Shown one piece after another: positions 28,085 to 62,101 of a stretch of 64,000 nt of DNA. Position numbers and translations under genes: made by a program. The notes beneath the pieces are model-generated. The model worked only from the letters and a program-made list of their open reading frames with translations. It did no database searches and was not told where the DNA came from. Every line of letters begins with the position of its first letter. Within the stretch, counting starts at the first letter, position 1. Location of the stretch: NCBI GenBank assembly GCA_963751275.1, contig CAVVTZ010000009.1, forward strand, positions 512,001 to 576,000, read 5' to 3'. Origin of the DNA: an uncultured Gemmatimonadaceae bacterium. GTDB taxonomy: Bacteria; Gemmatimonadota; Gemmatimonadetes; Gemmatimonadales; Gemmatimonadaceae.

Positions 28085-28490
28085 CCCCGAACGCCGTTAT
28101 TCGTCCCCCGAACTCCGTGAGGCGTGAGGCGTGCGACGAACTGACTGTACGGCGTCATTGGAGACCCTAACGCCGTGAGTCGCGACCCGAGCTCCGTGAT
28201 TCGTAACCCGAACACCGTTAGTCGTGAGTGCACTCACGGTGTTCGGGTGACCAATGACGCCGTACAGTCAGTTCGTCGCACGCCTCACGCCTCACGGTGT
28301 TCGGGTGACCAATGACGCCGTACAGTCAGTTCGTCGCACGCCTCACGCCTCACGGCGTTCGGGGGACCAATGACGCCGTACAGTCAGTTCGTCGCACGCC
28401 TCACGCCTCACGGCGTTCGGGGGACCAATAACGCCGTACAGTCAGTTCGTCGCACGCCTCACGCCTCACGGCGTTCGGGGGACCAATAAC
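28085..28490. repeat. Gene-free inverted/tandem array: 21-bp modules, one inverted copy, then ~4.4 tandem 58-bp units
   Basis: Units start 28235, 28293, 28351, 28409, 28467; inverted copy at ~28107-28161. Confidence 0.92.
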
Positions 28491-28509
28491 GTGATTTGGG
28501 GGTCGCCGT

Positions 28510-29804
28510 TCAGGTCTCGCCGCGCATGAGTTCGAGTACCATCTCGGTTGACCTTGCCGCCGCGCCGAGCCCGGCCCGCACCATTTCTCGCGCCGCGGCA
28601 CCCGCCGTTTCGCCGGCGCCCGTTCCACCGAGCCACGACACCAAGCGCGCGCCCAACTCATCGGAGCTCGCTGCGCTCGCTCCGCCCCCGCATTGGATCA
28701 ACAGGCGCGCGTCGCGGCTCATCACGAAGCGCGGCCCGAACGCCACTGGTGCGCCGTACGCCGCCGGCTCCAGCACCGAGTGCAGTCCGGCCGCATGGAA
28801 TCCGCCGCCCACGAATGCGCCCGTCGCGAGTGCATACAACTCGCCGAGTACTCCCACGCGGTCCACGATCACGACGTCTGCCGCACCCGCGCCCTCGGCG
28901 CTGAGGCGCGCGGTGCGCAGTCCCTGCTGCGCGGCGAGGCGCTCGAGTGGTTCGAGGTGCGCGGCCGTCGGTTCGTGCGGCGCGATGATCAGGCGGGCCG
29001 AGGGGATCGCCGCGCGCACGATCCGCCACGCGCTGAACAGGGGGGCCTCGTCCGCCGGCCAGGTGGAGCCCGCCACCAGCGTCGGCCGCGGGGAGACGAG
29101 CGGCGCGAGTAGCGTACCGCGCCGGTCGGCCGCGGCCGCGCGCATCCAGACCTGATCGTACCGCGTGTCGCCGGTGACCCGCACGCGTTCCGCTCGCGCG
29201 CCGAGCGCCGGTGAGCCGCGTCGGCATCCGCTTCATCGATCGCGCCGATCGCATCGAGCCGTGCGTACGCATCGCGCAGCACCGCGCGCGCGATCGGCGA
29301 GCGGCGCCCCGACGCGTCGCTCAGCGTCGCGCTGATGAGCCCCACGCGCACGCCGCGCGCCGCGGCCTCGCGCGTGAGCGTCGGCCACACATCGAGCTTG
29401 CTGAAGACGAGCGCGCGCGGCCGCAGCGCATCGAGCATCGCGCGCCCGTCGGCCGCGCGATCGAAGGGCAGATAATCCGCGCCATCCACGTCCAGCGCGC
29501 GCGCGAACGCCTCCGCGCTCGGCGAGAAGAACGTGTAGGCGATCTGCGCATCGGGGCGCTCGCGGCGGATCCGTTCCAGCACGGGCCGCGCCTGCAGTCC
29601 CTCGCCCACCGATGGCGCGTGCACCCAGAGCAGCGGCCGCGCCGGATCGCGCCGGTCCTTCGCCCACCGCTCCCATCGCGCGACCAGTCCCTTCCGCGCG
29701 GCGAACGTGCGCCGCGTCTTGCCGTCACCCGCGGGGGCGAGCTGCGCGCCGAGCTGCGCCGCGCGCGCCGCTCCCTCGTACAGCAGCTCGACCAGCGGAT
29801 GCAC
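28510..29804 (-). CDS. waaA: 3-deoxy-D-manno-octulosonic acid (Kdo) transferase (frameshift near 29200)
   Basis: LWVHAPSVGE, TFFSPS, YLPFD, VTGDTRYD, VAGSTW, HSVLEPAAYG. Confidence 0.88.
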
Positions 29805-29815
29805 GAAACTGCGCG

Positions 29816-30454
29816 CTACGGCTTCGCGGCCGAGCGGGCGAGCGCGTCGTCGAGCGCCTGGCGGAAGACCGAGATCCCCGCCGCGCCGGCGAGCTTGCGG
29901 CCCCCGATCAGGAAGGAGGGCGTCGAGGTCACGCCCTGCTCCTTGGACTTGTCGATGTCGGCCTCGATCGTGGGCGTCATTGCGCCGGACTTGATGCACG
30001 CGTTCATGTCGGCCACGTTGACGCCCGCGCGTTTCGCGAGCGACTCGAACGCCGGCGCGGGATCGGCGAGACCTTCCCACGAACCCTGATTGTCGAACAA
30101 CAGGTCCGCCATCGGCCAGAACTTCCCCTGCGCCGCCGAGCACATCGCCGCCTGGGCGGCGGGCATCGCGTTCCGGTGCATCGGCAGCGGGAAATTGATG
30201 TACGCGAGGCGGATCTTGCCGGTGTCCACGTACTCCTTCTTCACGGCGGCGTACGTCGAATCATGCCACATCTTGCAGTACGGGCACTGGAAGTCGCTGA
30301 TCTCGATGAGCCACACCGTGGCCGTGGGGCTGCCCTCGATGCGCGCCCGATCGGCGCGGCGCGCCATGGAGTCGGCGGCGGCGTTCTGTGCGGCGGCGGG
30401 CGCCGCGGCGGTGAGCACGAGGGTGGCGGCGAGCAGGAGATGGGTTCGGGTCAT
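29816..30454 (-). CDS. DsbA-family thioredoxin-domain protein
   Basis: Signal peptide; SDFQCPYC; GVTSTPSF. Confidence 0.88.
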   Translation of the reverse strand: MTRTHLLLAATLVLTAAAPAAAQNAAADSMARRADRARIEGSPTATVWLIEISDFQCPYCKMWHDSTYAAVKKEYVDTGKIRLAYINFPLPMHRNAMPAAQAAMCSAAQGKFWPMADLLFDNQGSWEGLADPAPAFESLAKRAGVNVADMNACIKSGAMTPTIEADIDKSKEQGVTSTPSFLIGGRKLAGAAGISVFRQALDDALARSAAKP

Positions 30455-30460
30455 CAGGCC

Positions 30461-31678
30461 TCAGAAATCGGAATGGAGCCGCCGGAGCGCGTTCGTGCGG
30501 CCATCGAGCAGATAAGTATAGCTGTCCGTGGACACGATGCTGGCCGCGAAGCCGAGCTCGCGCGCGACGCCAATGGTGACGAGCGCGCTCCCGCGGAGAT
30601 CCACCACGTAGACGCCGTCGGGGCCAGCCGCGACGAACATCCGGGAACCCGCGATCGACACGTCATACGTGAAACGCGCGACGGTCCACGCATGCCCCGC
30701 CACCGGGTGCGCGGGATCGGTGACGTCGAACATGCGGACGCCGCGCTCGCCCACGGCGACGGCCACGCGGTTGCCAGCGGCGGCGATCTTGCGCGCGCCG
30801 CCGTCGATCCGCGACACCGAGAGCCGGACGAGCGAGTCGCCGTTCAAGCGGAGCGCGAAGAGCGAGTCATCGGTCGCGGCCCACACGATGCTCCGGGCGG
30901 TGTCGAGCGCGAGCGCGCGCACTGGCGCCGCGAGGGTCACGCCCGGCCACGCGAGCTCGCTGTCCGCATTCACCGGCGTGATGCTCACTCGGTCCCCGCT
31001 CGCCGAGATGACGTGCCCTCGCGTCGCGACCGCCGCGGCCACCTCGCCGGACAGCACGAGCAGGCCGGGCCCCTGCCGCGGCGGGAAGAGGTAGAGTCCG
31101 CTGCCAGTCCCCACGGAGAGCCACTCGGTTCGCGGAGAGATGGCCAACGTGGTGATCCCGATCAGTCCGCGCGCGCGCAGGTCGCCCGGGAGCAGGCTGT
31201 TCCGGGAGAAGAACGTTTGCACGCCCTCGCTGGTGCCGACGTCCACGAGCGAGTCGCGCGCCGTGAGCGCGATCGGATCGCCCGTGACGTCGATCCGGGT
31301 GCTCCCGACGGAGAGCGGACGCACACCACGGAATTGCACCGCATGGATCTCATCGTACTGTTTCCCGAGCAGGTAGCCGCCGAGGCTGCCGAGGATCAAG
31401 CCGCCGACGACGACCGAGTACGCGGTCGGTTTCTGCGACGAGCCGATGGCGAGTCCGACGCCGAATCCGACGAGCGCGCCGACCACGGCCATGGACTTCT
31501 TTCGAGGCGTGCGCCCCTGCTCCATGTACACCGTGTCGTTCTGCGCACGCGCCGGCGGCGCCGAGGCCGCGAGGGTCGCGGCGCAGACGAGGGCGACGGC
31601 GGTGTTCCGGCGGAGGGAGGGGCGAGCCGGGAGGTGCCGGCGGGAGCGGTCGACCGGGGGGTGACGAAATAGGATCAT
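30461..31678 (-). CDS. Hypothetical secreted beta-propeller protein (LVIVD-like repeats)
   Basis: Signal-like segment; VAVGERGVRMFDVTDPAHP and VAAGPDGVYVVDL; start uncertain. Confidence 0.6.
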   Translation of the reverse strand: MILFRHPPVDRSRRHLPARPSLRRNTAVALVCAATLAASAPPARAQNDTVYMEQGRTPRKKSMAVVGALVGFGVGLAIGSSQKPTAYSVVVGGLILGSLGGYLLGKQYDEIHAVQFRGVRPLSVGSTRIDVTGDPIALTARDSLVDVGTSEGVQTFFSRNSLLPGDLRARGLIGITTLAISPRTEWLSVGTGSGLYLFPPRQGPGLLVLSGEVAAAVATRGHVISASGDRVSITPVNADSELAWPGVTLAAPVRALALDTARSIVWAATDDSLFALRLNGDSLVRLSVSRIDGGARKIAAAGNRVAVAVGERGVRMFDVTDPAHPVAGHAWTVARFTYDVSIAGSRMFVAAGPDGVYVVDLRGSALVTIGVARELGFAASIVSTDSYTYLLDGRTNALRRLHSDF

Positions 31679-31796
31679 TCGGTGGGCTGGGGGTCGGAGG
31701 CGGTCGTACAGTATAGTAGGGAGCGTCGCGATCGGCGGACGATGGGGCCGTCCATTGGGGTAGTGTCCAATGCCGTGGACATCTTCTGACTACTTC

Positions 31797-31825
31797 TTGA
31801 CACACCCCGCACCCGTTCCTATACT
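31797..31825 (+). promoter_or_regulatory. Sigma-70 promoter for susC1
   Basis: TTGACA-17 bp-TATACT. Confidence 0.75.
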
Positions 31826-32060
31826 CGGAAGACAAGGCAGTAGGTCCGAACGGTTTGGCAGCCCGGGTCCACGGATTCCGGCGGCCAACTGGTGGGCCTG
31901 TTGCTCATCCTCGTATTTCTGCTTTCGGACTCAACCAGGGAGGTGCCCCGGAAGTCGCGAGCCCGGTCAGTTGGCTGCGACGCGAGTGCGCGCAGCTTGG
32001 TTCCCACGGATGGATCGCAGATCCACACGTTCATTGGAACGAAGATCGAAAGGAGGAAGC

Positions 32061-35000
32061 ATGGGACGTCTTGTCAAGTCAGTTCTCGCGATCGTTTGCG
32101 CGCTGATCGCGTTGCCCGCATTGGCGGCAGCGCAGGAAGGCGCAACGATCAGCGGGCGCGTGACGAGTGAGGCCGGTGCACCACTGAATTCCGCCAACGT
32201 GTTCCTCGAAGGGATGAACATCGGAACGCTGGCGAAGGAAGATGGCCGGTACACGTTCGTCGTGCCCGCAGCCCGCGTGAAGGGCCAGCAGGTGACAGTG
32301 ACCGCCCGCTTGATCGGCTACCGCGCGAAGTCGGCGACGATCACGCTCGCGGCCGGTGCGATCACGCAGGATTTCGTGTTGGCGACCAATCCGCTCCGGC
32401 TCGGCGAAGTCGTCGTGACGGGTGCCGGTACGGCCACCACGGTCGGCAAGCTTGGCGTCGTGATCAACAACGTCGACTCGACGGCGATCGCGAATTCGAG
32501 CGAATACAACATCGTGAACGCGCTGGCGGCGAAGGCGCCGAACGTCAAGGTCAATAGCCAGGCGGGCGACCCGGGCGCTTCGTCGTACATCCAGATCCGC
32601 GGGCTCCGGTCGCTGTCGGGCACGGGGCAGCCGCTGTTCGTGGTCGACGGCACGCCGATCGACAACCAGACGAACTCCACCACGGGCTCGACGGGCGGCA
32701 CGGTGGCCCCGAACCGCGCGGCGGACATCGATCCGAACGACATCGAGTCGGTGGACATCCTGAAGGGTTCGGCGGCGGCCGCGATCTACGGTGCGGCGGC
32801 GTCGGACGGCGCGATCCTGATCACGACGAAGTCCGGTAAGTCGGGCGCGACGCGCTTCAGCTTCTCGTCGCAGCTGCAGGTGAACGGTGTGAGCCACGAG
32901 GTCCCGCTGCAGACGGACTACGCGCAGGGCAACGGCGGGGTGACCGATAAGTGCGCCGCGAACCTGACGACGGGCTGCACGGCGACCAGCATCTCCTACG
33001 GCGCGTCGCTCGCGGGCGGCACGACGACGTACGATCACTACACCGAGCTGTTCCGCGAAGGCGATCAGTGGAACAACAACCTGATGCTCTCCGGCGGCAA
33101 CGATCGGACCACGTACTACCTGTCGATGGGGTATTCGAATACCCAGGGTGTCATCACGGGCCCGAACAACTGGTACGACCAGTACAATCTGCGCGTGAAG
33201 GCGTCGCAGCGGCTGGCTGACCGCGTCGTGGTCAGCGGCAACATCGCGTACGTCGACACGCACGGGTCGTTCATTCAGCGTGGTTCCAACGTGTCCGGCC
33301 TCTTGCTCGGCGGATTGCGCACGCCGCCGGCGTTCAACAACCAGCCGTACCTCGACACGATCACCGGGTTGCAGCGCTCGTACCGGCATCCGGCGTACTG
33401 GCCGGGTTCGCAGGTGTCGTCGCGCGGCTACGACAATCCGTTCTTCGTGCTGAACTCCGATCCGGCGACGTCGCAATTGAATCGCGCGTTCGGCAATGTG
33501 GCCGTCGACTGGGAAGTCAACGACTGGCTGTCCGTCAAGGACAACCTGGGCGCGGACTACTACAACGACCAGCGCACGGAAGCGCTGGCGCAGTCGTCGT
33601 CCGGGTTCCCGACCGGTCTGGTGACCGTCGGCAACTATTCGGTCTACAGCATCGACAACTATCTGACCGCGACCGGCACGAAGACGTTCAATCCGGACTT
33701 CAGCGGGTCGTTGACGCTGGGCACGGACGTGCAGTCGAACAGCCAGACGCAGAACTTCACGCAGGGCCAGACGCTGGTCGCGCCGACGCCGTACGCGATC
33801 ACGAACACGGTGACCTACGTGCCCTCGACGTACAGTTCGCTCATCCATTCGCTCTCGTACTACGCGCATGCGACGGCGGACCTGTTCAATCAGCTGTATG
33901 TGACGCTCGGCGTTCGCCGCGACGGGTTCTCGACGTTCGGTGCGAGCGAGCCGTATGCCTGGTATCCGCAGGCCAACGTGGCGTGGACGTTCACGAACGC
34001 GTTGGGCAACACGGAACAGAAGGGTGTGCTGAGCTTCGGCAAGGTACGCGTCGGTTACGGCGAGACGGGCAAGCCGCCCGCTCCGTACTCCACGCAGACC
34101 GTGCTGGCGGCCGGCGCCTCGACGTTCTATGGGTCGGGCTACGGCGACTTCCTCCTCGGTTCGCAGAACGGGCATGGCGGTCTGTTGAGCGGGGCGAATC
34201 TGGGCAACGACAACATCCTGCCCGAGCGTGAGAAGGAACTGGAAGCCGGTCTTGATTTCGGCTTCTTCAACCAGACCGTCGATGCCGGCATCACGTGGTA
34301 CAAGGAGAACTCGACGGACGTCATTCAGGCGCTGCCGATCCCGCCGTCCACCGGCTACACGGGCGCGCTGTCGAACGCCGCGGCGATCGAGAACAAGGGC
34401 TTTGAAGTGACCGCGAATTGGCGTCCGCTGACCACGGCGAAGACGTCGCTGGAGTTCGGTGTCACGTGGGGCCAGAACTTCACGAACGCCACGAGTCTGG
34501 GCGGCGCGCAGTTCTACTACATCGCCGGCGGTACGTTCACCGGCGCCGTGGGTGCCATGTACCTGAACAACGGCATCGTGATGCAGGGGCAGGACTTCGT
34601 CCGCTGCGGTAAAGGTCTCGAGGATGCTACCGATCCGACCATCGCGTCGTACTGTGATGGCGCGCCCAAGAACGCGCTGTACATCGATGCGAACGGCTTC
34701 CCGATCACGGATCCGAACCAGCAGATCATCGCGAATCCGAATCCGAGCTGGATCGGTGGGTTCCATGGTTCGCTGCGCTTCGACAAGCTCACCGTGACGT
34801 TCCTGGTGGATCACAAGCAGGGCGGCCAGGTGTGGAACGGGACGCAGGGCGCACTCGAGTACTTCGGAACGCACAAGATCACGGATCTCCGCAACACGAA
34901 CCAGACGTTCGGTACGTCGGGCTGGTTCCCGGGCGCCGTCGTCGGTCCGGGCGCGGGCACGTCTGTGCTGATCGATCAGAATTGGTTCGAGGGCGACGGC

Positions 35001-35288
35001 TCAGGCTTCAGCGGTCCGTCGGCTCAGAACGTGGAAGACGGCACGTACACCAAGCTCCGCGAGATCGGCCTGCAGTACACGCTGGCCGGACGCTGGGTCA
35101 CGCACAATCTCGGTCTTTCGAGCGTGGACCTGCGCTTCGCGGGACGCAACCTGTACACCTGGACGAACTACACGGGCGTCGATCCCGAGACGAACCTCGG
35201 CGGAGCCGGCGTGACGTTCCAGGGCGTCGACTACTTCAACAGTCCGCAGACCAGGTCGTTCGTGTTTTCCATCGGCCTGAACCGCTAG
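32061..35288 (+). CDS. SusC/RagA family TonB-dependent receptor
   Basis: GGAGG SD; QPLFVVDG, DIDPNDIESVDILKGSAAAAIYGA, YTGVDPE, PQTRSF; followed by SusD. Confidence 0.92.
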   Translation: MGRLVKSVLAIVCALIALPALAAAQEGATISGRVTSEAGAPLNSANVFLEGMNIGTLAKEDGRYTFVVPAARVKGQQVTVTARLIGYRAKSATITLAAGAITQDFVLATNPLRLGEVVVTGAGTATTVGKLGVVINNVDSTAIANSSEYNIVNALAAKAPNVKVNSQAGDPGASSYIQIRGLRSLSGTGQPLFVVDGTPIDNQTNSTTGSTGGTVAPNRAADIDPNDIESVDILKGSAAAAIYGAAASDGAILITTKSGKSGATRFSFSSQLQVNGVSHEVPLQTDYAQGNGGVTDKCAANLTTGCTATSISYGASLAGGTTTYDHYTELFREGDQWNNNLMLSGGNDRTTYYLSMGYSNTQGVITGPNNWYDQYNLRVKASQRLADRVVVSGNIAYVDTHGSFIQRGSNVSGLLLGGLRTPPAFNNQPYLDTITGLQRSYRHPAYWPGSQVSSRGYDNPFFVLNSDPATSQLNRAFGNVAVDWEVNDWLSVKDNLGADYYNDQRTEALAQSSSGFPTGLVTVGNYSVYSIDNYLTATGTKTFNPDFSGSLTLGTDVQSNSQTQNFTQGQTLVAPTPYAITNTVTYVPSTYSSLIHSLSYYAHATADLFNQLYVTLGVRRDGFSTFGASEPYAWYPQANVAWTFTNALGNTEQKGVLSFGKVRVGYGETGKPPAPYSTQTVLAAGASTFYGSGYGDFLLGSQNGHGGLLSGANLGNDNILPEREKELEAGLDFGFFNQTVDAGITWYKENSTDVIQALPIPPSTGYTGALSNAAAIENKGFEVTANWRPLTTAKTSLEFGVTWGQNFTNATSLGGAQFYYIAGGTFTGAVGAMYLNNGIVMQGQDFVRCGKGLEDATDPTIASYCDGAPKNALYIDANGFPITDPNQQIIANPNPSWIGGFHGSLRFDKLTVTFLVDHKQGGQVWNGTQGALEYFGTHKITDLRNTNQTFGTSGWFPGAVVGPGAGTSVLIDQNWFEGDGSGFSGPSAQNVEDGTYTKLREIGLQYTLAGRWVTHNLGLSSVDLRFAGRNLYTWTNYTGVDPETNLGGAGVTFQGVDYFNSPQTRSFVFSIGLNR

Positions 35289-35298
35289 GAGACCCCAG

Positions 35299-49507: not shown

Positions 49508-49529
49508 GTACGTAACTGCGTTCGTAGAA

Positions 49530-49935
49530 CCCCGAACGCCGTGAGGCGCACCCCGAACGCCGTGAGGCGTGAGGCGTGCGAGGAACGGACTGTACGGCGT
49601 GAGCCGAACCCCTGACAGCGTGATTCGCGACCCACGCTCCGGCATTCGTCCCCCTAACGCCGGCGTGGGGTGCGCCTCACGCCTCACGCCCGTTCGTCGC
49701 ACGCCTCACGCCTCACGGCGTTCGTGCGCCTCACGCCTCACAGTCCGTTCGTCGCATGCCTCACGCCTCACGGCGTTCGGGGTGCGCCTCACGCCTCACA
49801 GTCCGTTCGTCGCACGACTCACGCCTCACGGCCTTCGGGGTGCGCCTCACGCCTCACAGTCCGTTCGTCGCATGCCTCACGCCTCACGGCGTTCGGGGGG
49901 ACGAACGACGGGGTTCGGGTCTCGCCTCACGCCGT
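49530..49935. repeat. Gene-free inverted/tandem array of the same 7/21/58-bp family
   Basis: 58-bp units start 49741, 49799, 49857 plus a degenerate unit; inverted copy at ~49552-49600. Confidence 0.9.
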
Positions 49936-50522
49936 CAGTCGTTGATCCGCAGCGTGTCCGTCCGGTCCGCGATGATCTCGACTCTCCGCGGCGTCCCGAC
50001 CGATTCTCCGCGCTTGCCGAGTGCGATGATCCACCATGTTCCGGCTCGCAGGGTGAGCAATGCTCGCTCATTCACGATCTTCGCGCGCGCGAGTTCCCGT
50101 CCGCCGGCCGCGGCTTCCTTCTCGAGTTCGCCCGTGTCGACCGCGCGCACCGGCCCCTCGTGGTGCCGCAGCGTATCCCGGCGGATCCGGAGACTCTCGG
50201 CATTCGCGGCATCGCGGGTGAACGCGGCGTACGCGTCCGCGTAGGCCGGTGTGCGGCGGTCGGTCTTGTCGAGGGAATCGGCGCGCGTGTTGAGCCGCGT
50301 GCGCGCTCGCTGGTACTCGGCGTTCAGCGAATCCGCGGCGTGATGCGCGGGGTCGTTCACAATGAGGAGCGAGGGATCCACCGGCGCGGCGAGCACTTCC
50401 ACGGCTCCCGGCACGGTGGTAGAATCCAACGTGACGCGCAGCGTGCCGCTGCGCGCGCACGCGACGGCCGCGAGGAGCACGACGGGAGCGGCGCGCCGCA
50501 GTCTCCCAACGAGGGCGCACAC
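49935..50522 (-). CDS. Hypothetical lipoprotein
   Basis: RRAAPVVLLAAVAC lipobox-like; start uncertain. Confidence 0.55.
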   Translation of the reverse strand: MCALVGRLRRAAPVVLLAAVACARSGTLRVTLDSTTVPGAVEVLAAPVDPSLLIVNDPAHHAADSLNAEYQRARTRLNTRADSLDKTDRRTPAYADAYAAFTRDAANAESLRIRRDTLRHHEGPVRAVDTGELEKEAAAGGRELARAKIVNERALLTLRAGTWWIIALGKRGESVGTPRRVEIIADRTDTLRIND

Positions 50523-51335: not shown

Positions 51336-51336
51336 C

Positions 51337-52576: not shown

Positions 52577-53197
52577 ATGCGCAAGAATAGATGGCTGGTG
52601 CTGTTGCTCCCGCTCTCGCTCGCCGGCTGCGGCTACAACCGCATCCAGACGATGGATGAGGCGGCGAATTCCGCGCGCAGCCAGATCGAAGTGCAGCTGC
52701 AGCGGCGGGCGGACCTGATCCCGAATCTCGTGAGCACCGTGAAGGGCTACGCGGCGCACGAGGATGAAGTGTTCACCAAGGTGGCGGAAGCGCGCACCGC
52801 GCTGATCGGCGCCATCGGCACGCACGATCCCGAGCAGATGGCCGCGGCGAACGCGCAGACCACGAGCGCGCTCGGCCGGCTGCTCGCGATCTCGGAGAAC
52901 TATCCGAACCTGAAGGCCGACCAGAGTTTCATCCGGCTCCAGGACGAACTGACGGGCACCGAGAACCGGATCGCCGTCTCGCGCAGCGACTACAACCAGG
53001 CGGCGCAGGCGTACAACGCGTACATCCGCCAGTTCCCCATCGTGCTCACGGCGAAGGTGATCGGCGCGAAGGCGAAGCCGTACTTCGAGACGTTGACGCC
53101 CGGCGCCGCGACCGCGCCCACGGTGGATTTCTCGAAGCCGGGTGCGGCGCCGCCGGCGCCGCCAGCGCCCGCGCCGGCCCCGACGAAGGTTCCATAA
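52577..53197 (+). CDS. lemA: LemA family protein
   Basis: CGYN, QRRADLIPNLV.TVKGYA.HE, ENYPNLKA, ENRIAVSR. Confidence 0.92.
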   Translation: MRKNRWLVLLLPLSLAGCGYNRIQTMDEAANSARSQIEVQLQRRADLIPNLVSTVKGYAAHEDEVFTKVAEARTALIGAIGTHDPEQMAAANAQTTSALGRLLAISENYPNLKADQSFIRLQDELTGTENRIAVSRSDYNQAAQAYNAYIRQFPIVLTAKVIGAKAKPYFETLTPGAATAPTVDFSKPGAAPPAPPAPAPAPTKVP

Positions 53198-53248
53198 TCA
53201 AAGAAGGGCATGCGTGAGGCGTGAGTCGTGCGTGACGGCGTGACTCGT

Positions 53249-53841
53249 ATGTGGTGCGTCAGGGCGTGCGCAACGGCGTTCGCGGCGGCGGTGATCGCCG
53301 CGTGCGCCGGAGGGCCGCCGCCGGGCTCCCCGGGCGCCCCGGCGCCGGTGATCAAGATCCTCTTCCCGCTCGTGATCGATTCGGTGCGCTTCACCAGCGG
53401 GTGGGGCGACGATCGCGAGGGCGGCCGCCTGCACCACGGGCAGGACATGTTCTGCCCGAAGTGGACGCCCATCATGGCGGTCGTGAACGGCACGGTGGAC
53501 TGGATCCTCACCTCGCCACCGAAGCAGCCGAAGGGATATCACATCCTGCTGCGCGGCGATGATGGCAACGTCTACCTGTATGAGCACCTGAACAACGACG
53601 ACCCCGGCACGAGCGACAACAAGGGGGCGCCGCGCTATGCGTACGCGCGCAATCTGAAGAACGGCGACCGCGTGGAGGCCGGCGACATCATCGGGTACGT
53701 CGGCGATTCCGGGAACGCCGAGAAGTGGGGGGCGCATCTCCACTTCGAGATCCATATCGGGAAGTGGGGCAACCCGATCGACCCCGCGCCCTCGTTGCGC
53801 GCCGCCCTGGCGCGCCGGCGCGCGAATTCGGGGATTCTTAG
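53249..53841 (+). CDS. M23 family peptidase lipoprotein (true stop uncertain)
   Basis: IAAC lipobox; HHGQD, YEHL, IGYVGDSGNA, HLHFEI. Confidence 0.75.
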
Positions 53842-53881
53842 GGAACCCTGTAGGGGATCCTTACAATATGTCGGGACGTTC

Positions 53882-54070: not shown

Positions 54071-57000
54071 ATGAAGTGGCGAGTTCTGTCAGTACTCGCA
54101 GTCCTCGCGTTGATGCCGCTCGCGGCATCGGCGCAACAGCAGGAAGGCTTGATCACCGGGAAAGTGACCAGCGACGCCGGGGCCCCAGTGGCCGGCGCGC
54201 AGGTCTACATCGAGAAGATGAATCTCGGGACGCAGACCAAAGATGACGGCACGTACCGGATCGTGATCCCCGCCGGCCGCGCCAACGGCCAGCAGGCGTC
54301 GCTCAGCGTGAAGCTCATCGGCTTCAAGCCGAAGTCCATCCTGGTGTCGCTCAAGCCCACCACGCAGACCATGGACTTCGTGCTCGGCGCGCAGGCCGTG
54401 GTGCTGCAGCAGGTCGTGATCACCGGAGAAGGGATCATGACCACGAACGAGAAGCTCGGTGAGACCGTGAACACCGTGCACTCGGACGCGATCACGGGAT
54501 CGAATGAGTCGAACCTGACCAACGCACTGTCGGCGAAGGCGCCGAACGTGCAGGTGCAGTCGTCCTCGGGCGACCCGGGTTCCTCGACGTCGATCCAGAT
54601 CCGCGGCCTGAAGACGTTCTCGGGCGACGGCCAGCCGCTGTTCGTCGTGGACGGCGTGCCGCTGGACAATTCGTCGGTCGGCACCGACCAGTACGCCGTG
54701 GGCAACCAGGGGCAGGGTGTCGTCACCTCGAACCGCATTGCCGACGTCAATCCGAATGACATCGAGAGTGTGACGATCCTGAAGGGCGCCGCCGCGGCCG
54801 CGATCTACGGCGCGCGCGCGTCGCAGGGCGTCGTGCTGATCACCACCAAGAGCGGCAAGTCGGGACAGACGCGCTACTCGTTCACGAGTTCGCTGTCGCT
54901 GAACGACGTCACGCAGGGCTACCCGCTGCAGACGACGTACGGACTCGGCGCCAATGGCATTGCGGCCACCTGCGACGCGACCTCCCTCCCGGGCAGCACG
55001 GACGGGGGCAGCGACTGTCTCGTGAGCACCGCGCGTTCGTGGGGCCCGGCCTTCGCGTCGGGCACCACCACCTACGACCACTTCGGCGGAATGTTCACCA
55101 CGGGGACGCTGTGGGACAACATCCTGTCAATGTCGGGGGGCGATGACCGCCGGAGCTTCTACTTCTCGGCGGGCTACTCCGCCAACGCGGGCAATGTCAC
55201 CGGCAACCAGAACGACTACAATCGCGCGACGTTCAAGCTGAAGGGTTCGCAGATGGTCACGGACCAGATGCAGATCTCGGCGAACTTCAACTACGTGAAC
55301 GTCACCGGCAATTTCATCCAGCGCGGCGACAACGTGGACGGCATCATGCTCGGCTCGCTGCGCACGCCCGCGAACTTCAACAACTTCGTCTATCTGGACA
55401 GCGCGTCCGGCCTGCAGCGGTCGTACCGTTATCCGAACCCGAGCGCATTCTCGACGACCACCAGCCGCGGATTCGACAACCCGATCTGGGTGGCGAACTC
55501 GATGCCGGCGACGCAGGACCTGAACCGGTTCTACGGCAACTTCATGTTCAACTGGACGCCGCAGGACTACCTGACCGTCCAGTGGACCCCGGGCGTCGAC
55601 TATTACGCCGACCAGCGCCTGGAAGCGTTCCCGCAGACGTCCTCGGGCTTCCCAACGGGGCAGATCTTCCGCACCGACATGAACAGCTTCATCGTGTCGA
55701 GCCTGCTCACGGTGATCGGGTCGCACACGTTCAACCCGAATTTCTCGGGCACGTTGACCCTCGGCAACGAGCTCAACAGCCAGCAGTTCAACCAGAACTT
55801 CGTGCAGGGCTTCACGCTCATCACGCCGCAGCCCTACACGATCTCCAACACGGTCAGCTGGTTCCCGAACGACGATGAGACGCTGGTGCACCGCCAGTCG
55901 TACTTCGCCCAGGCGACCGCGGACCTGTTCGACCAGCTCTACCTGACGCTGGCGATCCGCAACGACGGCTTCTCGACCTTCGCCCAGAACGATCCGCGGG
56001 CGTGGTACCCGAAGGCCAGCGCCGCGTGGACGTTCACCAAGACCACGGGCGCCACCAACTGGCTCCAATACGGGAAGATCCGCGCGGCGTACGGCGAGAC
56101 GGGGAAGGAGCCGCAGGCGTACTCGACGCTCAACAACTATCAGGTCAACAAGATCTACGAGTACGGCGGCGTCGGGTTCCTGAACAGCGTGTATGAAGGG
56201 ATCCCCGGCCTCACGTCGTCGACCCGCGTCGGCAACGATGCGCTGCAGCCGGAGCGCTCCAAGGAGTGGGAAACGGGCTTCGACCTGGGCTTCTTCAATG
56301 GCATGTCGGACCTGAGCTTCTCGTACTACAACAGCAACACCACGCAGGTGATCTTCCAGGTGCCGCTGCCGCCCTCGAGCGGTTACCAGAGCCAGGTGCA
56401 GAACGGCGCCACGATCTCGAACAAGGGTTACGAGGTCCAGCTGAACTTCAACTCACAGGCGCAGGCGAAGCTGCAGTGGTCGCTCGGTCTGCTCTGGGCC
56501 CAGAACCGGAACAACGTCGAGGCCATCAACGGCGCATCCATCGTCTTCCTGCCGAATTCGATCGTGAATGCGGTGGCGAAGGTCGGTTCGCCGGTGGGTT
56601 CGATCTACGGATATGACTTCTACCGCTGCGGCAAAGGCGAGACCGTTGCCGGCGTCGACATCGACACCACGCCGACGACTGGCGGCGGCTGCGGCTCGGG
56701 CTACGCCAAGAACGCCATGTACATCGGCGCCGACGGCTTCCCGATCATCAACACCGATTCCAATATCGTGCTGGGCAGCGCGCAGCCGAACTGGACGGGC
56801 GCGATCCGCGGCTCGATCACGCCGTACAAGAACCTCCAGTTCTCCTTTCTGTTCGACATTCGCAACGGGAGCCAGGCCTACAACGGCACCCGCGGCGCGC
56901 TGTACGTGTACGGCACGCACAAGGACACCGAGGTCCGCGGCCAGCACCTGGTCTTCGGCACCTCGATCGATCCGGGCGCCGTGGCCGGACCGGGCGCGGG

Positions 57001-57329
57001 GTCGGCCGTGCTCATCGAATGCGAACTGGTTCCAGGGCGACGGCGGGTCGTTCGGCAACAACACCGCCAGCTTCGTGGAAGACGCCGGATTCACCAAGCT
57101 CCGTGAGATCGCCCTCGCGTACACGTGGGACGGACGCTGGGTGACGCACAATCTCGGCCTGAGCAGCCTCCAGCTGCGCGTGGCCGGCCGCAATCTCTAC
57201 ACCTGGACCAAGTACACCGGCATCGACCCCGAATTCAATCTCGAGGGCGTGGCGCTGGTGCAGGGGGTGGACTGGTTCAGCAATCCGCAGACGCGCTCCT
57301 TCGTCATGTCCATCACTCTCAACCGCTAA
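54071..57329 (+). CDS. SusC/RagA family TonB-dependent receptor (frameshift near 57020)
   Basis: GGAGG SD, own signal peptide MKWRVLSV; NPNDIESVTILKGAAAAAIYGARA; PQTRSF. Confidence 0.9.
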
Positions 57330-57344
57330 CCAGAGGTGAGCACA

Positions 57345-58799
57345 ATGAAGAAGCAACTCAAGCTCGCACTGGCGGCGGCGACTTCGGTGCTGCTGCTGGC
57401 AGGCTGCACGGACTTCCTCAAGGGTCCCGGCCTGAGCACCAACCCCAACGTGCCGACGACCGCTTCGGCCGACCAGCTGTGGGTCGGATCGCAGGTGGCC
57501 GTGATGGCGCAGTGGGAGAATTACCCGTTCATGCTGTTCTTCCTGTGGGCGCAGCAGATCTCCGGCGTGAACCGGCAGTGGCAGAACTACGCCCGCTTCC
57601 AGGCCGGGACCGATCAGAACGCCGCCGACGGCGCCTTCAACCAGACGTACGGCCCCGGCGGGCTCGTGGATCTGCGGCAGGTGGATACAATGGCCACGCA
57701 TGCCGGCAATATGAAGATGCGTGGTGAATCGGAAGTGCTCGAAGCGCTGTACATCGGAACGGCCGCCGATATCTTCGGCTCCGTCCCGTACAGCACCGCG
57801 CTCACTCCCGTGCCGACGTACGACACGCAGGCGGACGTGTATGATGAGGTGCAGACGACGCTGAACAACGCGATCAACGACCTCAACAGCGCGCCGTCAT
57901 CGACGAACGCCGGTCCGGTGGCCGACTTCTTCTTCGGGAACGACTACACGAAGTGGATCGCGGCCGCGAACACGCTCAAGGCGCGGTTCTTCATGCACAC
58001 CGCGCGCACGGGCGCCACGACGTACAGCGCCACGATCCTCGACTCCGTGATCAAGTACACGCAGATCGGGATCTCGAGCTCGGCCGGTGATCTGTCCACG
58101 ACCCACACGGGCACGCCGGGGGAGCAGAATCTGTTCTACAGCTTCCTCTTCAGCCGCGCGGGCGACGTGGAACCGGCCGCGATGCACATCAATCTGTCCA
58201 AGCAGGCGGGCGAGGCGGCGATGCTCACCCAGTATTACCTGCCGAACTCGATCGACAGCATCGTCGGTTCCGGCCCGGATGCTTCATCGCCGGGCGTTTC
58301 CGCGTTCGCTACGCAGCCCACGACGCCGGTGCCGATCGTGACCTACGTCGAGAACCAGATGCTGCTGGCGGAAGCCAACCTCATCAACGGGACCTCCGTT
58401 GGCGGGACGCCGCTGGCGATCCTGAACGCGTATCGCGCGACGGTGGGTGCGGCGGCGCTCGGTTCCTCGGGCGCGGTGCTCCACCAGAATATCATCCGCG
58501 AGAAGTACATCCACATCTTCTTCAATATCGAAGTGTGGGATGACTATCTCCGGACCTGCTATCCGAACGTTCCGATGACGGCTCAAATGCAGTCGCCCGG
58601 CGGAAGCGCGGGGCCGTACGTGCCCGCGCGGCTGCCGATCGGCATCACGGAACAGTCGGCGAACCCGAACGTCCCGGCGACCATCCCGGGCGGCCAGCCA
58701 ATGAACGGCAACGACGCCGCGAACCCGACCAATCCAAAGAATCTGGTGGATCTGGTAGGGGCCGCGTGCGCCGGACAAGTGAATCGGCCGGGGACTTGA
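57345..58799 (+). CDS. SusD/RagB family lipoprotein
   Basis: LLAGC lipobox; TNPN; FGSVPYS; ENQMLLAEA; EVWDDY. Confidence 0.88.
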   Translation: MKKQLKLALAAATSVLLLAGCTDFLKGPGLSTNPNVPTTASADQLWVGSQVAVMAQWENYPFMLFFLWAQQISGVNRQWQNYARFQAGTDQNAADGAFNQTYGPGGLVDLRQVDTMATHAGNMKMRGESEVLEALYIGTAADIFGSVPYSTALTPVPTYDTQADVYDEVQTTLNNAINDLNSAPSSTNAGPVADFFFGNDYTKWIAAANTLKARFFMHTARTGATTYSATILDSVIKYTQIGISSSAGDLSTTHTGTPGEQNLFYSFLFSRAGDVEPAAMHINLSKQAGEAAMLTQYYLPNSIDSIVGSGPDASSPGVSAFATQPTTPVPIVTYVENQMLLAEANLINGTSVGGTPLAILNAYRATVGAAALGSSGAVLHQNIIREKYIHIFFNIEVWDDYLRTCYPNVPMTAQMQSPGGSAGPYVPARLPIGITEQSANPNVPATIPGGQPMNGNDAANPTNPKNLVDLVGAACAGQVNRPGT

Positions 58800-58822
58800 T
58801 ACTCCCGACGGTTGCCTGACGT

Positions 58823-58860
58823 GAAGAAGCCCGGGTCAATGTCGACCCGGGCTTCTTCAT
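58823..58860 (+). terminator. Intrinsic terminator
   Basis: gaagaagcccgggtc/gacccgggcttcttc. Confidence 0.75.
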
Positions 58861-58889
58861 TTCCGCAACGCCAGGTCCGTACTTGGTGC

Positions 58890-59642
58890 CCCGAACGCCG
58901 TGAGTCACGAGGCGTACGTCGAACTGACTGTGCGGCGTGACTCGCAACCCGAACACCGTGAGTCGAGACCCGAGAGCCGTGACTCGTACCCCCAACGCCG
59001 CGAGTCACTCGTCAGCCCTCGGCGTGGGCGGGAGCGGGGGCTTCCCGGGACTTGCGGAGCATCACGCGCAGGATGCGCGAGATCGCCGAGTGGAGGCCAA
59101 TGCGCGAGTTCGCGACGGAGGGACTCAGTTGGTCGCGTGCGCGGTAGTACCACTCGCGGGACTCGCGCGCCGAACCGAGCGCATACTCGTAGAAGCGGGC
59201 GCGGTCGCGGCGGCCGAGTCGGCTGTATCCTTCGGCGATGTTCACGCCGCTCGATGCCGTGGCGCGTTTGAGTTGGTCCGCGACCTGCGCGGACTGGGGA
59301 TGCGCAATCAGTCGCTCCGCGTCCCGTGCCCCGAGCTCCGCGGCGTAGAGCGCGGCACGGTAAACGCGCATCCCCCAGATCGCATCACCACGGATCGCGA
59401 CTGGCACCAATGCTTCCCACATCTCGTATTTCACCGCTCGCCTCCGTACACGCAGGGGGCGGAACGATCGTGACGGACTGCCTACTCGCCATCACCGATT
59501 CGTTTCAACCGGAATCCCCCCGCCGCACTCACGGCGTTGGGGGTTCGAGTCACGGCTCTCGGGTGTCGACTCACGGTGTTCGGGTTGCGAGTCACGCCGT
59601 ACAGTCAGTTCGACGTACGCCTCATGACTCACGGCCTTCGGG
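58890..59642. mobile_element. Four-helix-bundle gene cassette 1 bounded by 116-bp inverted repeats
   Basis: 58890-59005 vs 59527-59642: 110/116 identical by manual comparison; mobility is inferred. Confidence 0.6.
59012..59434 (-). CDS. Four helix bundle protein (23S-IVS protein / bAvd-like fold)
   Basis: DQLKRATASSGVNIAEGYSR..DRARFYEYALGSARE. Confidence 0.88.
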   Translation of the reverse strand: MKYEMWEALVPVAIRGDAIWGMRVYRAALYAAELGARDAERLIAHPQSAQVADQLKRATASSGVNIAEGYSRLGRRDRARFYEYALGSARESREWYYRARDQLSPSVANSRIGLHSAISRILRVMLRKSREAPAPAHAEG

Positions 59643-59643
59643 T

Positions 59644-60529
59644 CTAGTCCGGGATAGCGGTTCCCGGGAGAACGTACGTCAACGGGTCCACCGCGCGGCC
59701 GTTCACGTGGATCTCGTAATGCGAGATGCGGCCCCGTCGAGAGCCCCGTGTTGCCGATGTTCGCGATCACCTGGCCGCGCTTCACCTTCTGGCCGACCCG
59801 CACGACGATGCGCGAGCAGTGCGCGTACTTCGTGGTGATCCCGAAGCCGTGGTCGATCTCGAGCACGTTGCCGTAGCCCGTTTCCTTGCGCACGGCCGTG
59901 ACGACGCCGCCGGCGGGGGCGACGATCGGCGCGCCCATGGGCGCGCTCACGTCGATCCCCTCGTGCGGGCGCGCAATGTGCAGAATGGGATGGAAGCGCG
60001 AACGGCTGAACGTGCTCGAGAGCCAGCCGGCGGTGGGCATGATGCTCGGGATCGACTGGAATTTCGCGGCACCGGCGCGCAGCGTATCGGAGACCTCGGC
60101 GAAGCTCGCCGAGAGTGTTTTGGCGCGCGCGATCATGCCGTCGATGTCGGGCTCATCGCTGGCGAGTCCCAGCGCGGTGAGATCCCGCCTCGTGGAATCG
60201 TGGCGCGCGGCGTAGGTGTCATCCGAGGACAGCCCCGCGAGCAGGCGGATCTCCGTGTCGCGGCGGTCGATCTCCTCGAGCGTGGTGCTCAGCGTGTCGA
60301 TCTGCGCGCGGAGGGTGCCGACGGCCACGCGAAGGCTCGCGTCGTCCTGGCCGCGCAGGTAGCGCGAAATGGAATACGCCCCGATCCCGAGCCCGACCAG
60401 CGCCAGGACCGCCAGCGTTCCCACGCCATACATGGCCCAACGCGCGCCCCGCTCCGAGACATGGAGCTGGCGCGGCGAATCGGCCCCATGGGGGACGAGG
60501 AGGAGGGTCCAGCGGAGGGGAGAGGGCAA
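59644..60529 (-). CDS. M23 family peptidase with TM and coiled coil (frameshift near 59720)
   Basis: HEGIDV, GYGN, TKYAH, GNTGLSTGPH; alternate frame ends VDPLTYVLPGTAIPD*. Confidence 0.85.
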
Positions 60530-60536
60530 AGGACTT

Positions 60537-60662
60537 GGGAGTCGGGAGTCGGGAATCGAGGGTCTAAACCTACCCCTTTAAGACTCCCGGCGGGAGAGTG
60601 CCGTCACGGCCCTAATTGGGGTCCGAAGGCGCAGTTCCCGATTCCCGACTCCCGATTCCCGA
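60537..60662. repeat. Inverted (GGGARTC)n heptamer repeat pair
   Basis: gggagtcgggagtcgggaatcg ... ttcccgattcccgactcccgattcccga. Confidence 0.75.
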
Positions 60663-60671
60663 ACTTTACGC

Positions 60672-61340
60672 CTACTGGTAAAGCGCGGGAAACTCTTTCT
60701 TCAGCGCCTCGACCTTGGGTATGTCGTTGTAGACGATGTACGGCTGGTCCGGGTGCTTATCCAGGTAGCCCTGATGGTAGTCCTCGGCCGCGTAGAACTT
60801 CTTGAGCTGGGAGACTTCCGTCACGATCGGCGCCGGGTAGACCTTCGCGGCAGTGAGCTGCGCGATGTACGCCTTCGCGAGCTTTGCCTGCTCGGCGTTC
60901 GTGTAGAAGATGGCCGAGCGGTACTGCGTGCCGTGGTCGGGGCCCTGGTAGTTGAGCTCGGTGGGGTTATGCGCGACCGAGAAGAAGACCTTGAGCAGTT
61001 CGCCGTAGGTGATCTTGCTCGGATCGTAGATGACCTGCACCGATTCGGCGTGGCCGGTGGTGCCGGTGCTCACGAGTTCGTAGCCCGGGTCGCTCACTGT
61101 GCCGCCGGCGTAGCCGGAGGTGGAGGAGATGACGCCCTTCACATGCTCGAACACGGCCTGAACGCCCCAGAAGCAGCCGCCGGCGAACACGGCGGTGTCG
61201 CGCGCGGGGGCGGAGGCGAGGGCCGCATTCTGCTCGGGATCGGGCACAGGAACCGTCGCGCCAGCGTTGCCGCAGGCGATGGCGAGAGCAAGGGGGAGCA
61301 TCGCGATCATCATCGCGAGGTGGGGAATCGTGCCGCGCAT
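60672..61340 (-). CDS. msrA: Peptide methionine sulfoxide reductase A, exported
   Basis: FAGGCFWG, GYAGG, GHAE, QYRSAIF, AEDYHQ; N-terminal signal. Confidence 0.92.
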   Translation of the reverse strand: MRGTIPHLAMMIAMLPLALAIACGNAGATVPVPDPEQNAALASAPARDTAVFAGGCFWGVQAVFEHVKGVISSTSGYAGGTVSDPGYELVSTGTTGHAESVQVIYDPSKITYGELLKVFFSVAHNPTELNYQGPDHGTQYRSAIFYTNAEQAKLAKAYIAQLTAAKVYPAPIVTEVSQLKKFYAAEDYHQGYLDKHPDQPYIVYNDIPKVEALKKEFPALYQ

Positions 61341-61417
61341 GGTAGGTCTCCTTCGGTGGTGTGTTCAAGTTCATTGAACCAATACTTCGTGATCATGCGA
61401 GTTCCGTGACTGCGAAC

Positions 61418-62101
61418 CCCGAACTCCGTACTTGGTCACCCGAACTCCGCCATTGGCAACTGAGGCATGGTCACGGCTCAGGCGGTGCTAGCAAGGGGCG
61501 GGCGCGTGGGGGAATGCGATGTCGCGTGAAATGGGACGGTGATGAGAGGGGGTCGGCGATACGTGATCATCATTCATCGTCGGCCGGAGGAATCAGTGAG
61601 CTACGAAGCGTGGGAAATGTCGGTGCCCGAACACATCAAGACCGATCCGTTGTGGGGACTTCGCGTTTATCGTGCTGCCATGTACGCCGCCGAGGTCGGG
61701 CGGCGCGACTCGGCGTGGCTGGCGAGAAAACAGGGATTCGAGGAACTGGCGCAACAACTGAGACGATCGACGTCATCGATCCCCGCGAACATGGCGGAGG
61801 GCTACAGCCGCAATGGTAAGCGCGATCGGAATCGCTTCTACGAATACGCCCTGGGCTCCGCGCGCGAATCGCGCACTTGGTACTATCAAGCGCGTGATGT
61901 GCTCGGCCCCAACGCCACGCACTCCCGCATCGCCCTGCACACCACCATCGCCCGCATTCTCGCAGTCCTTGTTCGCCGAGACCGCGAGGCAGCCGTGCCC
62001 ATCACCGAACCCGAACCATAACGATTCCCATATCCGCACAAGCCGTGACTACGCCTCAGTTGCCAATGGCGGAGTTAGGGTGACCAAGTACGGCGTTCGG
62101 G
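61418..62101. mobile_element. Four-helix-bundle gene cassette 2 bounded by 61-bp inverted repeats
   Basis: 61418-61478 vs 62041-62101: 57/61 identical; lies between msrB and msrA; mobility is inferred. Confidence 0.6.
61596..62021 (+). CDS. Four helix bundle protein, paralog of 59012..59434
   Basis: GGAGG SD then GTG; QLRRSTSSIPANMAEGYSR..RFYEYALGSARESR. Confidence 0.88.
   Translation: MSYEAWEMSVPEHIKTDPLWGLRVYRAAMYAAEVGRRDSAWLARKQGFEELAQQLRRSTSSIPANMAEGYSRNGKRDRNRFYEYALGSARESRTWYYQARDVLGPNATHSRIALHTTIARILAVLVRRDREAAVPITEPEP

Follow-up and report, generated by a model that had tools for sequence, protein, structure and literature searches.

The window, as we call the whole stretch of 64,000 nucleotides that was analysed, contains loci at which arms built of short repeats face each other, in some cases around a gene for a four-helix-bundle protein and in others around no gene. 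How did such arms reach several places, and does the protein have a part in it? An earlier note, made from the sequence alone, proposed that protein and hairpin spread together, with gene-bearing and empty copies as in RAYT/REPIN systems.

Hairpin loci in the window

All four loci of the note (28.1, 49.5, 58.9 and 61.4 kb) were found where it had placed them. Those at 59 and 61 kb bear a gene, those at 28 and 49.5 kb do not, and the 7-nt and 21-nt periods of the arms were confirmed. The three core sequences named in the note are present in both arms of their loci, but the cores at 28 and 59 kb are identical, so that these two loci are not separated by their core. A fifth hairpin, located at 23 kb and absent from the note, contains TGGCAACTGAG as well. 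The 61-kb locus belongs to family 0 (50 copies), and those at 28, 49.5 and 59 kb belong to family 3 (28 copies). The features are listed below, with strand for the genes; "master" denotes a gene-bearing cassette whose arms match a hairpin family.

8972..9087, gene-less 9-mer hairpin of family 2, GxxExxY-linked class
16212..16274, heptamer hairpin of family 13 beside a tRNA cluster; second copy at 5226-5284
22960..23095, gene-less hairpin of family 1; its master is a four-helix-bundle cassette on C10
28084..28505, gene-less hairpin of family 3; three inner 21-mers in the left arm (about 28084-28225), 4.5 tandem 58-nt units in the right arm
49529..49935, gene-less hairpin of family 3 between convergent genes; right arm of 4.1 tandem 58-nt units
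58890-59005, left arm of the 59-kb cassette, family 3; 116 nt, 95% complementary to the right arm
59012-59434, minus strand, four-helix-bundle gene; TIGR02436 and PF05635 above cut-offs; clade of the C2:57 kb master
59527-59642, right arm of the 59-kb cassette; 116 nt, starting right after the TAG stop (59644-59646) of an M23 peptidase gene
60537..60662, plain heptamer arms of family 13, on either side of a spacer that is conserved and lies upstream of the M23 gene
61418-61485, left arm of the msrB-msrA (61-kb) cassette, family 0; 68 nt, 90% complementary to the right arm
61596..62021, plus strand, four-helix-bundle gene; likely GTG start at 61596, open frame from 61539; TIGR02436 and PF05635 above cut-offs
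62034-62101, right arm of the 61-kb cassette; 68 nt, directly after the TAG stop of msrB (62103-62105)

The outer right end of the 28-kb hairpin adjoins the stop codon of a convergent kdtA-like gene, and the 61-kb four-helix-bundle gene lies antisense to msrB-msrA. No Rfam family was found for the arms; only tRNAs were matched in the window. Contigs of mixed relatives from four DNA runs indicate an assembly error near 59723, where the sequence has an extra base. A contig joint skipping 61449-62070 was not counted as evidence, as it matches gene-less family-0 copies elsewhere and the contigs come from mixed relatives.

The two open reading frames scored 52.9 and 65.3 bits against TIGR02436 (cut-off 24). 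A structure model (pLDDT 95) was most similar to 2gsc and 2rld, and the likeness to the DGR accessory protein bAvd that the note had asserted was borne out by PDB 4dwl (TM 0.62 by query and 0.79 by target, rmsd 2.4; 9% identity, E 0.46). No recognised catalytic fold was found in these structure matches. Residues Q54, N65, E68 and E91 of the protein are invariant. In the sources consulted, bAvd and the Xanthomonas protein are described as pentamers. The gene is under purifying selection, with a dN/dS of 0.03-0.44 in 11 of 11 pairs and of 0.21-0.23 for the 59-kb gene against congener members of its clade. Family matches to PF05635 were present in 35 of 41 related genomes.

Genome-wide hairpin families

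The link between gene and arms holds throughout the genome. In G000, the assembly to which the window belongs, 342 long intergenic hairpins in 21 families were identified, the window loci among them. Families whose sequence matches the arms that flank a PF05635 gene, either in G000 or in a congener, account for 216 hairpins and all have periods of 7, 14 or 21 nt or derivatives of these, while 86 hairpins match GxxExxY loci and have periods of 8-9 nt. For 164 of the 342, the four-helix-bundle master lies inside the G000 assembly itself (83% complete); families without a master there gave no clear sign of greater or faster decay. The arms matched 120 places in a search of the whole genome, and two related high-GC genomes with neither PF05635 nor GxxExxY had 0 comparable hairpins in 200 and 232 kb. 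The hairpins are thus not a product of chance.

The cross-genome test comprised five genomes, including the fragmented assembly G028. Genomes with PF05635 but without GxxExxY, RT and Y1 had 18 and 5 hairpins in 200 kb, and the gene arms of G026 match 11 places in the sample of that genome. G016 has eight PF05635 genes, yet 0 hairpins in 200 kb. GxxExxY was rejected as a trans-acting nuclease required for heptamer hairpins, since G021 and G026 have hairpins without it.

The repeat ends of REPIN-RAYT systems carry a GTAG or CGTC tag. At the hairpin ends, GTAG was not enriched (99/684 against 226/1916 in the background), nor was CGTC (130 for 684 ends, 424 for 1916 background sites); AAC[GT][AG]C was (239 for 684 ends, 117 for 1916 background sites). 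Only 11 of 340 junctions hold two families, so co-occurrence does not demonstrate a targeting of old hairpins.

The note had also held that arms match their own partner better than other loci and that this pairing is actively maintained. The effect is real but weak: in family 3, the arms of one element are closer to each other than shuffled pairs (0.126 vs 0.183, p<0.001), but the own partner is nearest in only 2 of 17 elements. Active maintenance is weakly supported by this family; family 8 was without effect. Adenine mutagenesis of the DGR type was absent from the arms, where variation at A (0.10-0.15) does not exceed that at other bases.

Search for a mobilising enzyme

The search for an enzyme acting in trans, which the note had proposed, yielded no RT, Y1/RAYT or IS110 in any of the six genus genomes (63-89% complete). 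There were 0/6 matches each to PF01797, NF047646, the reverse transcriptase profile PF00078, IS110 and DUF559, and 0/5 to PF01797 and PF00078 in five further genomes (at least 95% complete). GIY-YIG matches lay mostly in frames of 380-1200 residues and were taken as repair genes. DDE transposases were rejected as sporadic: on the two profiles used, PF01609 was present in 2/5 and PF00665 in 3/5 genomes, and neither in G002 or G005. No hairpins were found within 3 kb of the two G000 DDE matches.

Conserved junctions with changing content

We compared G000 with three congeners, G002, G004 and G005, that are about 85% identical to it. The proposal that protein and hairpin spread together was not supported in that form: six of the seven gene-bearing sites are also gene-bearing in congeners, only the one at 59 kb being new, a result not far from the fixed cassettes that the note itself had named as counting against its proposal. 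Nor do the empty copies mark new sites, as gene-less hairpins occupy conserved junctions with replaced content. Congener hairpins lie at junctions where G000 has one in 33/38, 27/31 and 26/28 cases, compared with 9/170, 12/189 and 4/117 for other junctions; new junctions are almost never occupied by them.

Within the window, the 28-kb junction carries a gene-less hairpin with different arm motifs in all three congeners, the 49.5-kb junction family 16 in G004 and G005 and family 0 in G002, and the 23-kb junction a heptamer hairpin in two congeners and almost nothing in one. At 60537..60662, G004 has a whole family-0 hairpin in place of the right arm. Among the four genomes compared, G000 alone has a gene at the 59-kb junction, which is gene-less in the three congeners. 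The 61-kb site is gene-bearing in all four; in G005, both the allele and the arms are different.

These changes are concerted. Motif A occurs 80 times in G000 (in 28 elements including the C2 master), but in the congener DNA (1.12 Mb) it occurs 0 times. Motif B occurs 0 times in G000 and is found at motif-A junctions of the congeners and in the three congener C2 masters. Arms were nearer to a paralogue than to the orthologue in 22 of 27 cases, in a test that sets the best of many paralogues against at most three orthologues. Between G002 and G005, which are 93% identical, 15 of 32 hairpin junctions were less than 80% alike, compared with 9 of 68 controls. At master sites, gene and arms were exchanged jointly: among the three congeners, gene identity is 88-99% where arms agree (five sites) and 60-74% where they differ; same-arm alleles can diverge too (83% at C11:13.7 kb, 76-91% at C11:7 kb). 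A best-master test on whole elements gave 101 own versus 98 other in G000, 6 versus 16 in G005 and 5 versus 13 in G002. Changes from family 3 to family 16 may represent descent instead of replacement.

Alternative explanations

Could such changes be passive? Hairpins selected by the host as 3' ends or insulators might be homogenised by ectopic gene conversion and slippage, with the gene as passenger or regulator. This would fit their placement: hairpins adjoin stop codons, with 166 of 398 stop-facing ends within 15 nt as against 7 of 286 start-facing ends, and convergent gaps are enriched (112/342 hairpins vs 191/1312 gaps). Arm variation is a mosaic of few recurring alleles, the tandem expansions of 58 and 37 nt look like slippage, and the lack of a mobilising enzyme in the genus genomes searched points the same way. 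However, conversion that depends on homology cannot exchange one family for an unrelated one at the same junction, an exchange that was found between G002 and G005 (1 vs 6, 11 vs 8, 12/21 vs 5). It cannot fill a hairpin-free junction, and two clean empty sites were detected, nor can it put a whole 9-mer hairpin into the loop of another family, an arrangement seen among the nested and orphan-arm intermediates. The match of most families to the arms of one or the other of two gene families would also be left unexplained. We consider passive conversion unlikely.

We give still less credence to gene and arms moving jointly as a transposase-free mobile cassette, of which empty copies would be deletion derivatives. 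The 59-kb site can be read in this way, as can C11:13.7 kb, which is gene-bearing in G002 and G004 and holds a gene-less family-8 hairpin in G000, and at 28 and 49.5 kb a single arm retains the inner 21-mers, which is what a deletion would produce. Against it stand the gene-bearing sites common to congeners and the near absence of new junctions; moreover, none of the G000 genes is a near-identical copy of another (66% between 59 kb and C2), gene-less copies hold no clear remnant of coding sequence, and target-site duplications were not found (5-mer duplications 1/73 vs 1.7 shuffled).

Finally, a system at the RNA level like the 23S rRNA intervening sequences, in which transcript arms pair, RNase III cuts and the protein binds stems to tune processing or stability, is brought to mind by the PF05635 family gene within an RNase III-cut stem in Coxiella 23S rRNA (as far as described in PMC4990558), by the action of bAvd on RNA (in the part of PMC6182149 that treats it) and by long stems placed after stop codons, but is very improbable here, since G·U pairs on the transcribed strand are not in excess over A·C (193 vs 170, p=0.25) and give no support for a hairpin specifically of RNA, 168 of 342 hairpins lie between convergent or divergent genes, the gene runs against the gene downstream of it at 21 of the 23 loci that could be called, and an RNA role alone leaves the replacement of DNA unexplained, with no RT in 11 genomes.

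Proposed mechanism

Judging from sequence comparison, we put the probability at about one half that the master protein recognises its own arm sequence and that host recombination or repair enzymes copy these arms into existing hairpin junctions. The master genes are few and mostly fixed, and their arms match those of the genome-wide families. A lineage would acquire a new master allele, gene together with arms, probably by horizontal allelic exchange; gene-less copies would then gradually be rewritten to the arms of the new master, and old arms would persist as orphans or outer shells. In rare cases the gene itself would be copied with the arms (59 kb), or it would disappear (C11:13.7 kb). Probably the hairpins are tolerated by the host or serve it as 3' structures downstream of stop codons, and this would account for the persistence of the junctions. 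We infer the protein as the cause, its binding to folded DNA, and cutting and joining by host enzymes.

A wider reading is possible, if rather doubtful: PF05635 proteins might be to another class of intragenomic replicators, unrelated to REPINs, what RAYTs are to REPINs. In this class, a sequence-specific non-transposase pentamer would direct the insertion and overwriting of its cognate hairpin DNA at existing junctions, and GxxExxY nucleases might run a parallel 9-mer class in the same junctions.

Comparison with known systems

The analogy to RAYT/REPIN drawn in the note holds, in that families of intergenic hairpins are tied to a rare cognate gene. REPIN-RAYT systems of Pseudomonas are described as intergenic inverted doublets, with several families per genome and a rare cognate gene flanked by the repeat (PMC3116915, in part). 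The elements found here are likewise high-copy intergenic inverted doublets with a rare cognate gene that is flanked by the same repeat and under purifying selection, and what the conserved spaces hold varies together with the cognate gene, although the whole-element best-master test was equivocal. Unlike in REPIN-RAYT systems, the cognate gene encodes a four-helix-bundle protein and not an HUH transposase (no RAYT/Y1 in six genus genomes), and the arms are 7-mer-periodic, 25-140 nt long and without a GTAG/CGTC tag. For REPINs, the REPORTH preprint (10.1101/2024.10.14.618302) reports different repeat types within conserved spaces, in 13 of 20 spaces that are fully conserved, and suggests overwriting upon RAYT exchange. 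Junction conservation in our genus is far higher than in REPIN-RAYT systems, at about 87-93% of congener hairpins across species. The pattern resembles the REPIN overwriting proposed for RAYT systems, but without a RAYT.

The 23S rRNA intervening sequences (S23p/PF05635; Coxiella, PMC4990558 in part) are similar in that an ORF of the family is enclosed by a long terminal stem, and in that insertion positions are fixed and content is sporadic. In contrast to these, the present loci are outside rRNA, with protein genes as neighbours to which the gene is mostly antisense, the gene is under purifying selection, and hundreds of gene-less copies occur beside it. The protein has the fold of bAvd (PDB 4dwl; PMC10053308 and PMC6182149, both in part), but unlike in DGRs there is no RT in the genus genomes and no adenine-specific arm variation. 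The Xanthomonas GGGAATC heptamer repeats (PMC4692102) are also intergenic arrays with convergent pairs near stop codons, and the unit of family 13 is nearly the same; the available part of that paper treats them as quadruplex-forming and gives no link to a gene family. Like MITEs, the hairpins are short, non-coding and multi-copy, with inverted ends and rarer gene-bearing relatives; unlike MITEs, they lack target-site duplications, their long form is without a transposase and the same junctions are reused.

Implications

We found no link of PF05635/TIGR02436 or GxxExxY to intergenic hairpin families in the literature outside most subscription journals and bioRxiv supplements; the part of PMC4679880 available to us does not mention the PF05635/TIGR02436 family. 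The findings offer a candidate, testable role for a very common protein family of unknown function, and a candidate origin of the 7-nt repeats of bacteria, which have lacked an explanation. Natural swap pairs also exist in the genus: masters that are alleles of one site but carry different arms (families 0/19; 3/16; 15/18/20; 6/12), and from these the hairpin to be bound by each protein can be predicted. If replacement is driven by the protein, this would be a site-reusing route of DNA writing that belongs to none of the transposase classes known, and the overwriting that has until now merely been suggested for REPINs would have a second case. Should the wider reading of PF05635 proteins as RAYT equivalents be true, bacterial heptamer repeats and rRNA intervening sequences would be products of one DNA-writing mechanism, which could do without a known transposase, recombinase or reverse transcriptase belonging to it.

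Hairpins in the window and in the genome

The loci at 28, 49.5, 59 and 61 kb are as the earlier note described them. TIGR02436/PF05635 four-helix-bundle genes sit inside two of them, the cassettes at 59 kb and 61 kb; those at 28 kb and 49.5 kb have no gene, and one arm of each is expanded to about four 58-nt units. The arm family of the 61-kb locus differs from the one common to the other three. Additional hairpins were found at about 5.2, 9.0, 16.2, 17.9, 23.0 and 60.5 kb. A six-tRNA cluster (15789-16697) has a heptamer hairpin within it. An orphan family-3-like arm lies at 53211-53260, after the gene 52577-53197, whose orthologue is surrounded by weak inverted arms in the congeners G004 and G005. 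A spacer between heptamer arms upstream of an M23 gene (60537-60662) is kept in all four genomes; it is possibly the promoter of that gene, in which case the arms would flank a regulatory sequence. Completeness of the assembly is 83%, and frameshift errors are present. Frameshifts occur at 28989-30143 (kdtA-like gene) and 59723 (M23 gene); the latter is not present in any of four sequencing runs compared and is thus likely an assembly error.

Long inverted repeats were sought across the source genome without regard to family. Of the 359 elements recovered, 342 form 21 families with at least two members each, and none had more than half its length in coding sequence. Seven elements, spread over six families, contain a four-helix-bundle gene. 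Families matching the arms of such a gene comprise 216 hairpins (congener loci counted in); gene-bearing cassettes whose arms match gene-less hairpins are called masters here. A further 86 hairpins are in families linked to GxxExxY genes (PF13366, L091-L093), and the remaining 40 are in neither class. Families 10, 11, 13, 17, 22 and 23 have no gene linked so far.

GxxExxY genes and the larger family 10 repeat
C7:943262-943597, GxxExxY gene
C7:952096-952431, GxxExxY gene
C12:52281-52604, GxxExxY gene
Window 17945-18211, larger composite inverted repeat of family 10, 11 copies

Two of the three GxxExxY genes are enclosed by 9-mer arms, which match about 60 gene-less hairpins; the third sits outside an entire family-9 hairpin, immediately downstream, as in G004 (L095).

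Hairpin ends lie within 15 nt of a stop codon in 166 of 398 stop-facing cases, and within 15 nt of a start codon in 7 of 286 start-facing cases. The motif AAC[GT][AG]C is enriched at hairpin termini (239/684 ends vs 117/1916 background windows). Where a stop codon is adjacent, the motif frequently overlaps it (67/231 adjacent stops vs 107/2176). Neither GTAG/CGTC tags at hairpin ends nor target duplications were found in this genome. At 49935-49937, 59644-59646 and 62103-62105, the host-gene stop codon, at some sites with the last codons, changes along with the hairpin between species.

Conserved junctions with changing content

Syntenic DNA (320-400 kb each) was compared from G002, G004 and G005, congeners that are 85-86% identical to the source genome and 92-93% to one another; the more fragmented assemblies of G001 and G003 contributed single loci only. 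Hairpin junctions, i.e. intergenic gaps with a hairpin, are conserved: 33/38, 27/31 and 26/28 congener hairpins are located where the source genome has one, against 9/170, 12/189 and 4/117 for other mapped junctions. With a stricter score, 26/40, 21/41 and 20/27 source hairpins were matched, and several apparent absences in congeners are decayed hairpins. Junction reuse may reflect targeting, or there may be few places where a hairpin is tolerated.

Hairpin content turns over in concert. The family differs at 12/30, 12/23 and 16/31 shared junctions, some pairs (3 vs 16) being related families. One family-3 motif occurs 80 times in the source genome and not once in the congener regions compared; its counterpart, absent from the source genome, is found in congeners at the same junctions and in the arms of their master gene. 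Arms were closer to a paralogue than to the orthologue in 22/27 cases, in a test that favours paralogues. Between G002 and G005, 15/32 hairpin junctions are less than 80% alike (9/68 controls), unrelated families are exchanged at single junctions, and two sites are clean of any hairpin. Five source loci look like intermediates: one has a 9-mer hairpin nested in the loop of a family-6 hairpin, and four have a new hairpin beside an orphan arm. Junctions mixing two families are few (11/340 rows). When whole elements were assigned to their best master, the source genome gave 101 for the own master vs 98 for another, G005 6 vs 16, and G002 5 vs 13. The REPORTH preprint (10.1101/2024.10.14.618302) describes mixed REPINs in 13/20 fully conserved spaces and suggests overwriting as RAYTs are exchanged.

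Four-helix-bundle genes

Of the seven gene-bearing sites, six also carry a gene in at least two congeners (the C10 site is anchored by one flank only), the exception being the 59-kb copy; conversely, the source genome has a gene-less hairpin at one site that is a master in congeners. A tree built from 20 subfamily sequences groups the genes by site. Where G002, G004 and G005 share arms, their genes are 88-99% identical at five sites, but 83% and 76-91% at two others; identity drops to 60-74% at sites where arms differ. Gene and arms are thus exchanged jointly at fixed sites. The dN/dS values of 11 gene pairs range from 0.03 to 0.44, and the neighbour is convergent to the gene at 21/23 callable loci (35 examined; not all independent). 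The predicted protein model (pLDDT 95) matches 2gsc and 2rld, and the DGR accessory protein bAvd more weakly; Q54, N65, A67, E68, G69 and E91 are invariant across 38 sequences. In the family-3 master C2:57227-58139, whose arms best match empty copies, the gene is frameshifted, which on this error-rich contig may be decay or assembly error.

Mechanism

We propose, with a probability of about one half, that the four-helix-bundle protein recognises its own arms as folded DNA, and that host enzymes would copy the recognised arms into junctions already occupied by a hairpin. Passive conversion accounts for the homogenisation of hairpins, but leaves the exchange between unrelated families unexplained and is unlikely. 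Somewhat less probable still is a mobile cassette of gene plus arms. The earlier note had protein and hairpin spreading together in gene-bearing and empty copies; the gene gain at 59 kb fits, but the masters are fixed, with most gene-bearing sites shared. A role in RNA processing is improbable, as its strand signature is absent: arm mismatches on the transcribed strand have no G·U excess (193 vs 170, p=0.25).

No adenine-specific variation was seen in the arms. Active maintenance of arm pairing, also suggested by the earlier note, is weakly supported: agreement between own partners exceeds that of shuffled pairs in families 3, 0, 1, 2/4, 6, 7 and 5, but not in family 8, and just 2/17 family-3 elements have their partner as the nearest arm. 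Active repair would produce such agreement, and so would the copying of symmetric units as wholes.

An RT, HUH or DDE enzyme acting in trans gained no support. Searches for RT, Y1, RAYT, IS110 and DUF559 gave no hit in any of the six genus genomes (63-89% complete), nor did those for RT and Y1 in five further genomes (at least 95% complete); the two DDE families searched are sporadic, and neither occurs in G002 or G005. PF05635 is present in 35/41 genomes (a tally including the unpublished G012, which enters no other result). Samples of 200 kb contained 0 hairpins in two genomes lacking both PF05635 and PF13366, and 18 and 5 in G021 and G026, which have PF05635 and not PF13366. G016 (L023, L144-L153) has eight PF05635 matches, one of them with imperfect non-periodic arms, and no long hairpins in the 200 kb sampled, which counts against a simple gene-hairpin rule.

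Relation to known systems

23S rRNA intervening sequences (PMC4990558) have the same gene-in-stem layout, but sit in rRNA, unlike the hairpins here. Related literature covers bAvd (PMC10053308, PMC6182149), heptamer repeats (PMC4692102), REPIN-RAYT (PMC3116915) and further work (PMC4679880, PMC8700078, 10.1101/2021.07.10.451892). A literature search, with subscription journals largely outside its scope, found no paper tying PF05635 proteins to intergenic hairpin families. Since both RAYT and tag are missing, the hairpins are not members of the REPIN-RAYT group, although they would work in like manner. Comparison across species adds evidence for masters that stay at their sites and for overwriting in place. 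The hairpin/four-helix-bundle system is real and, within the literature searched, apparently unpublished: a REPIN-RAYT-like system, whose mechanism is so far a proposal.
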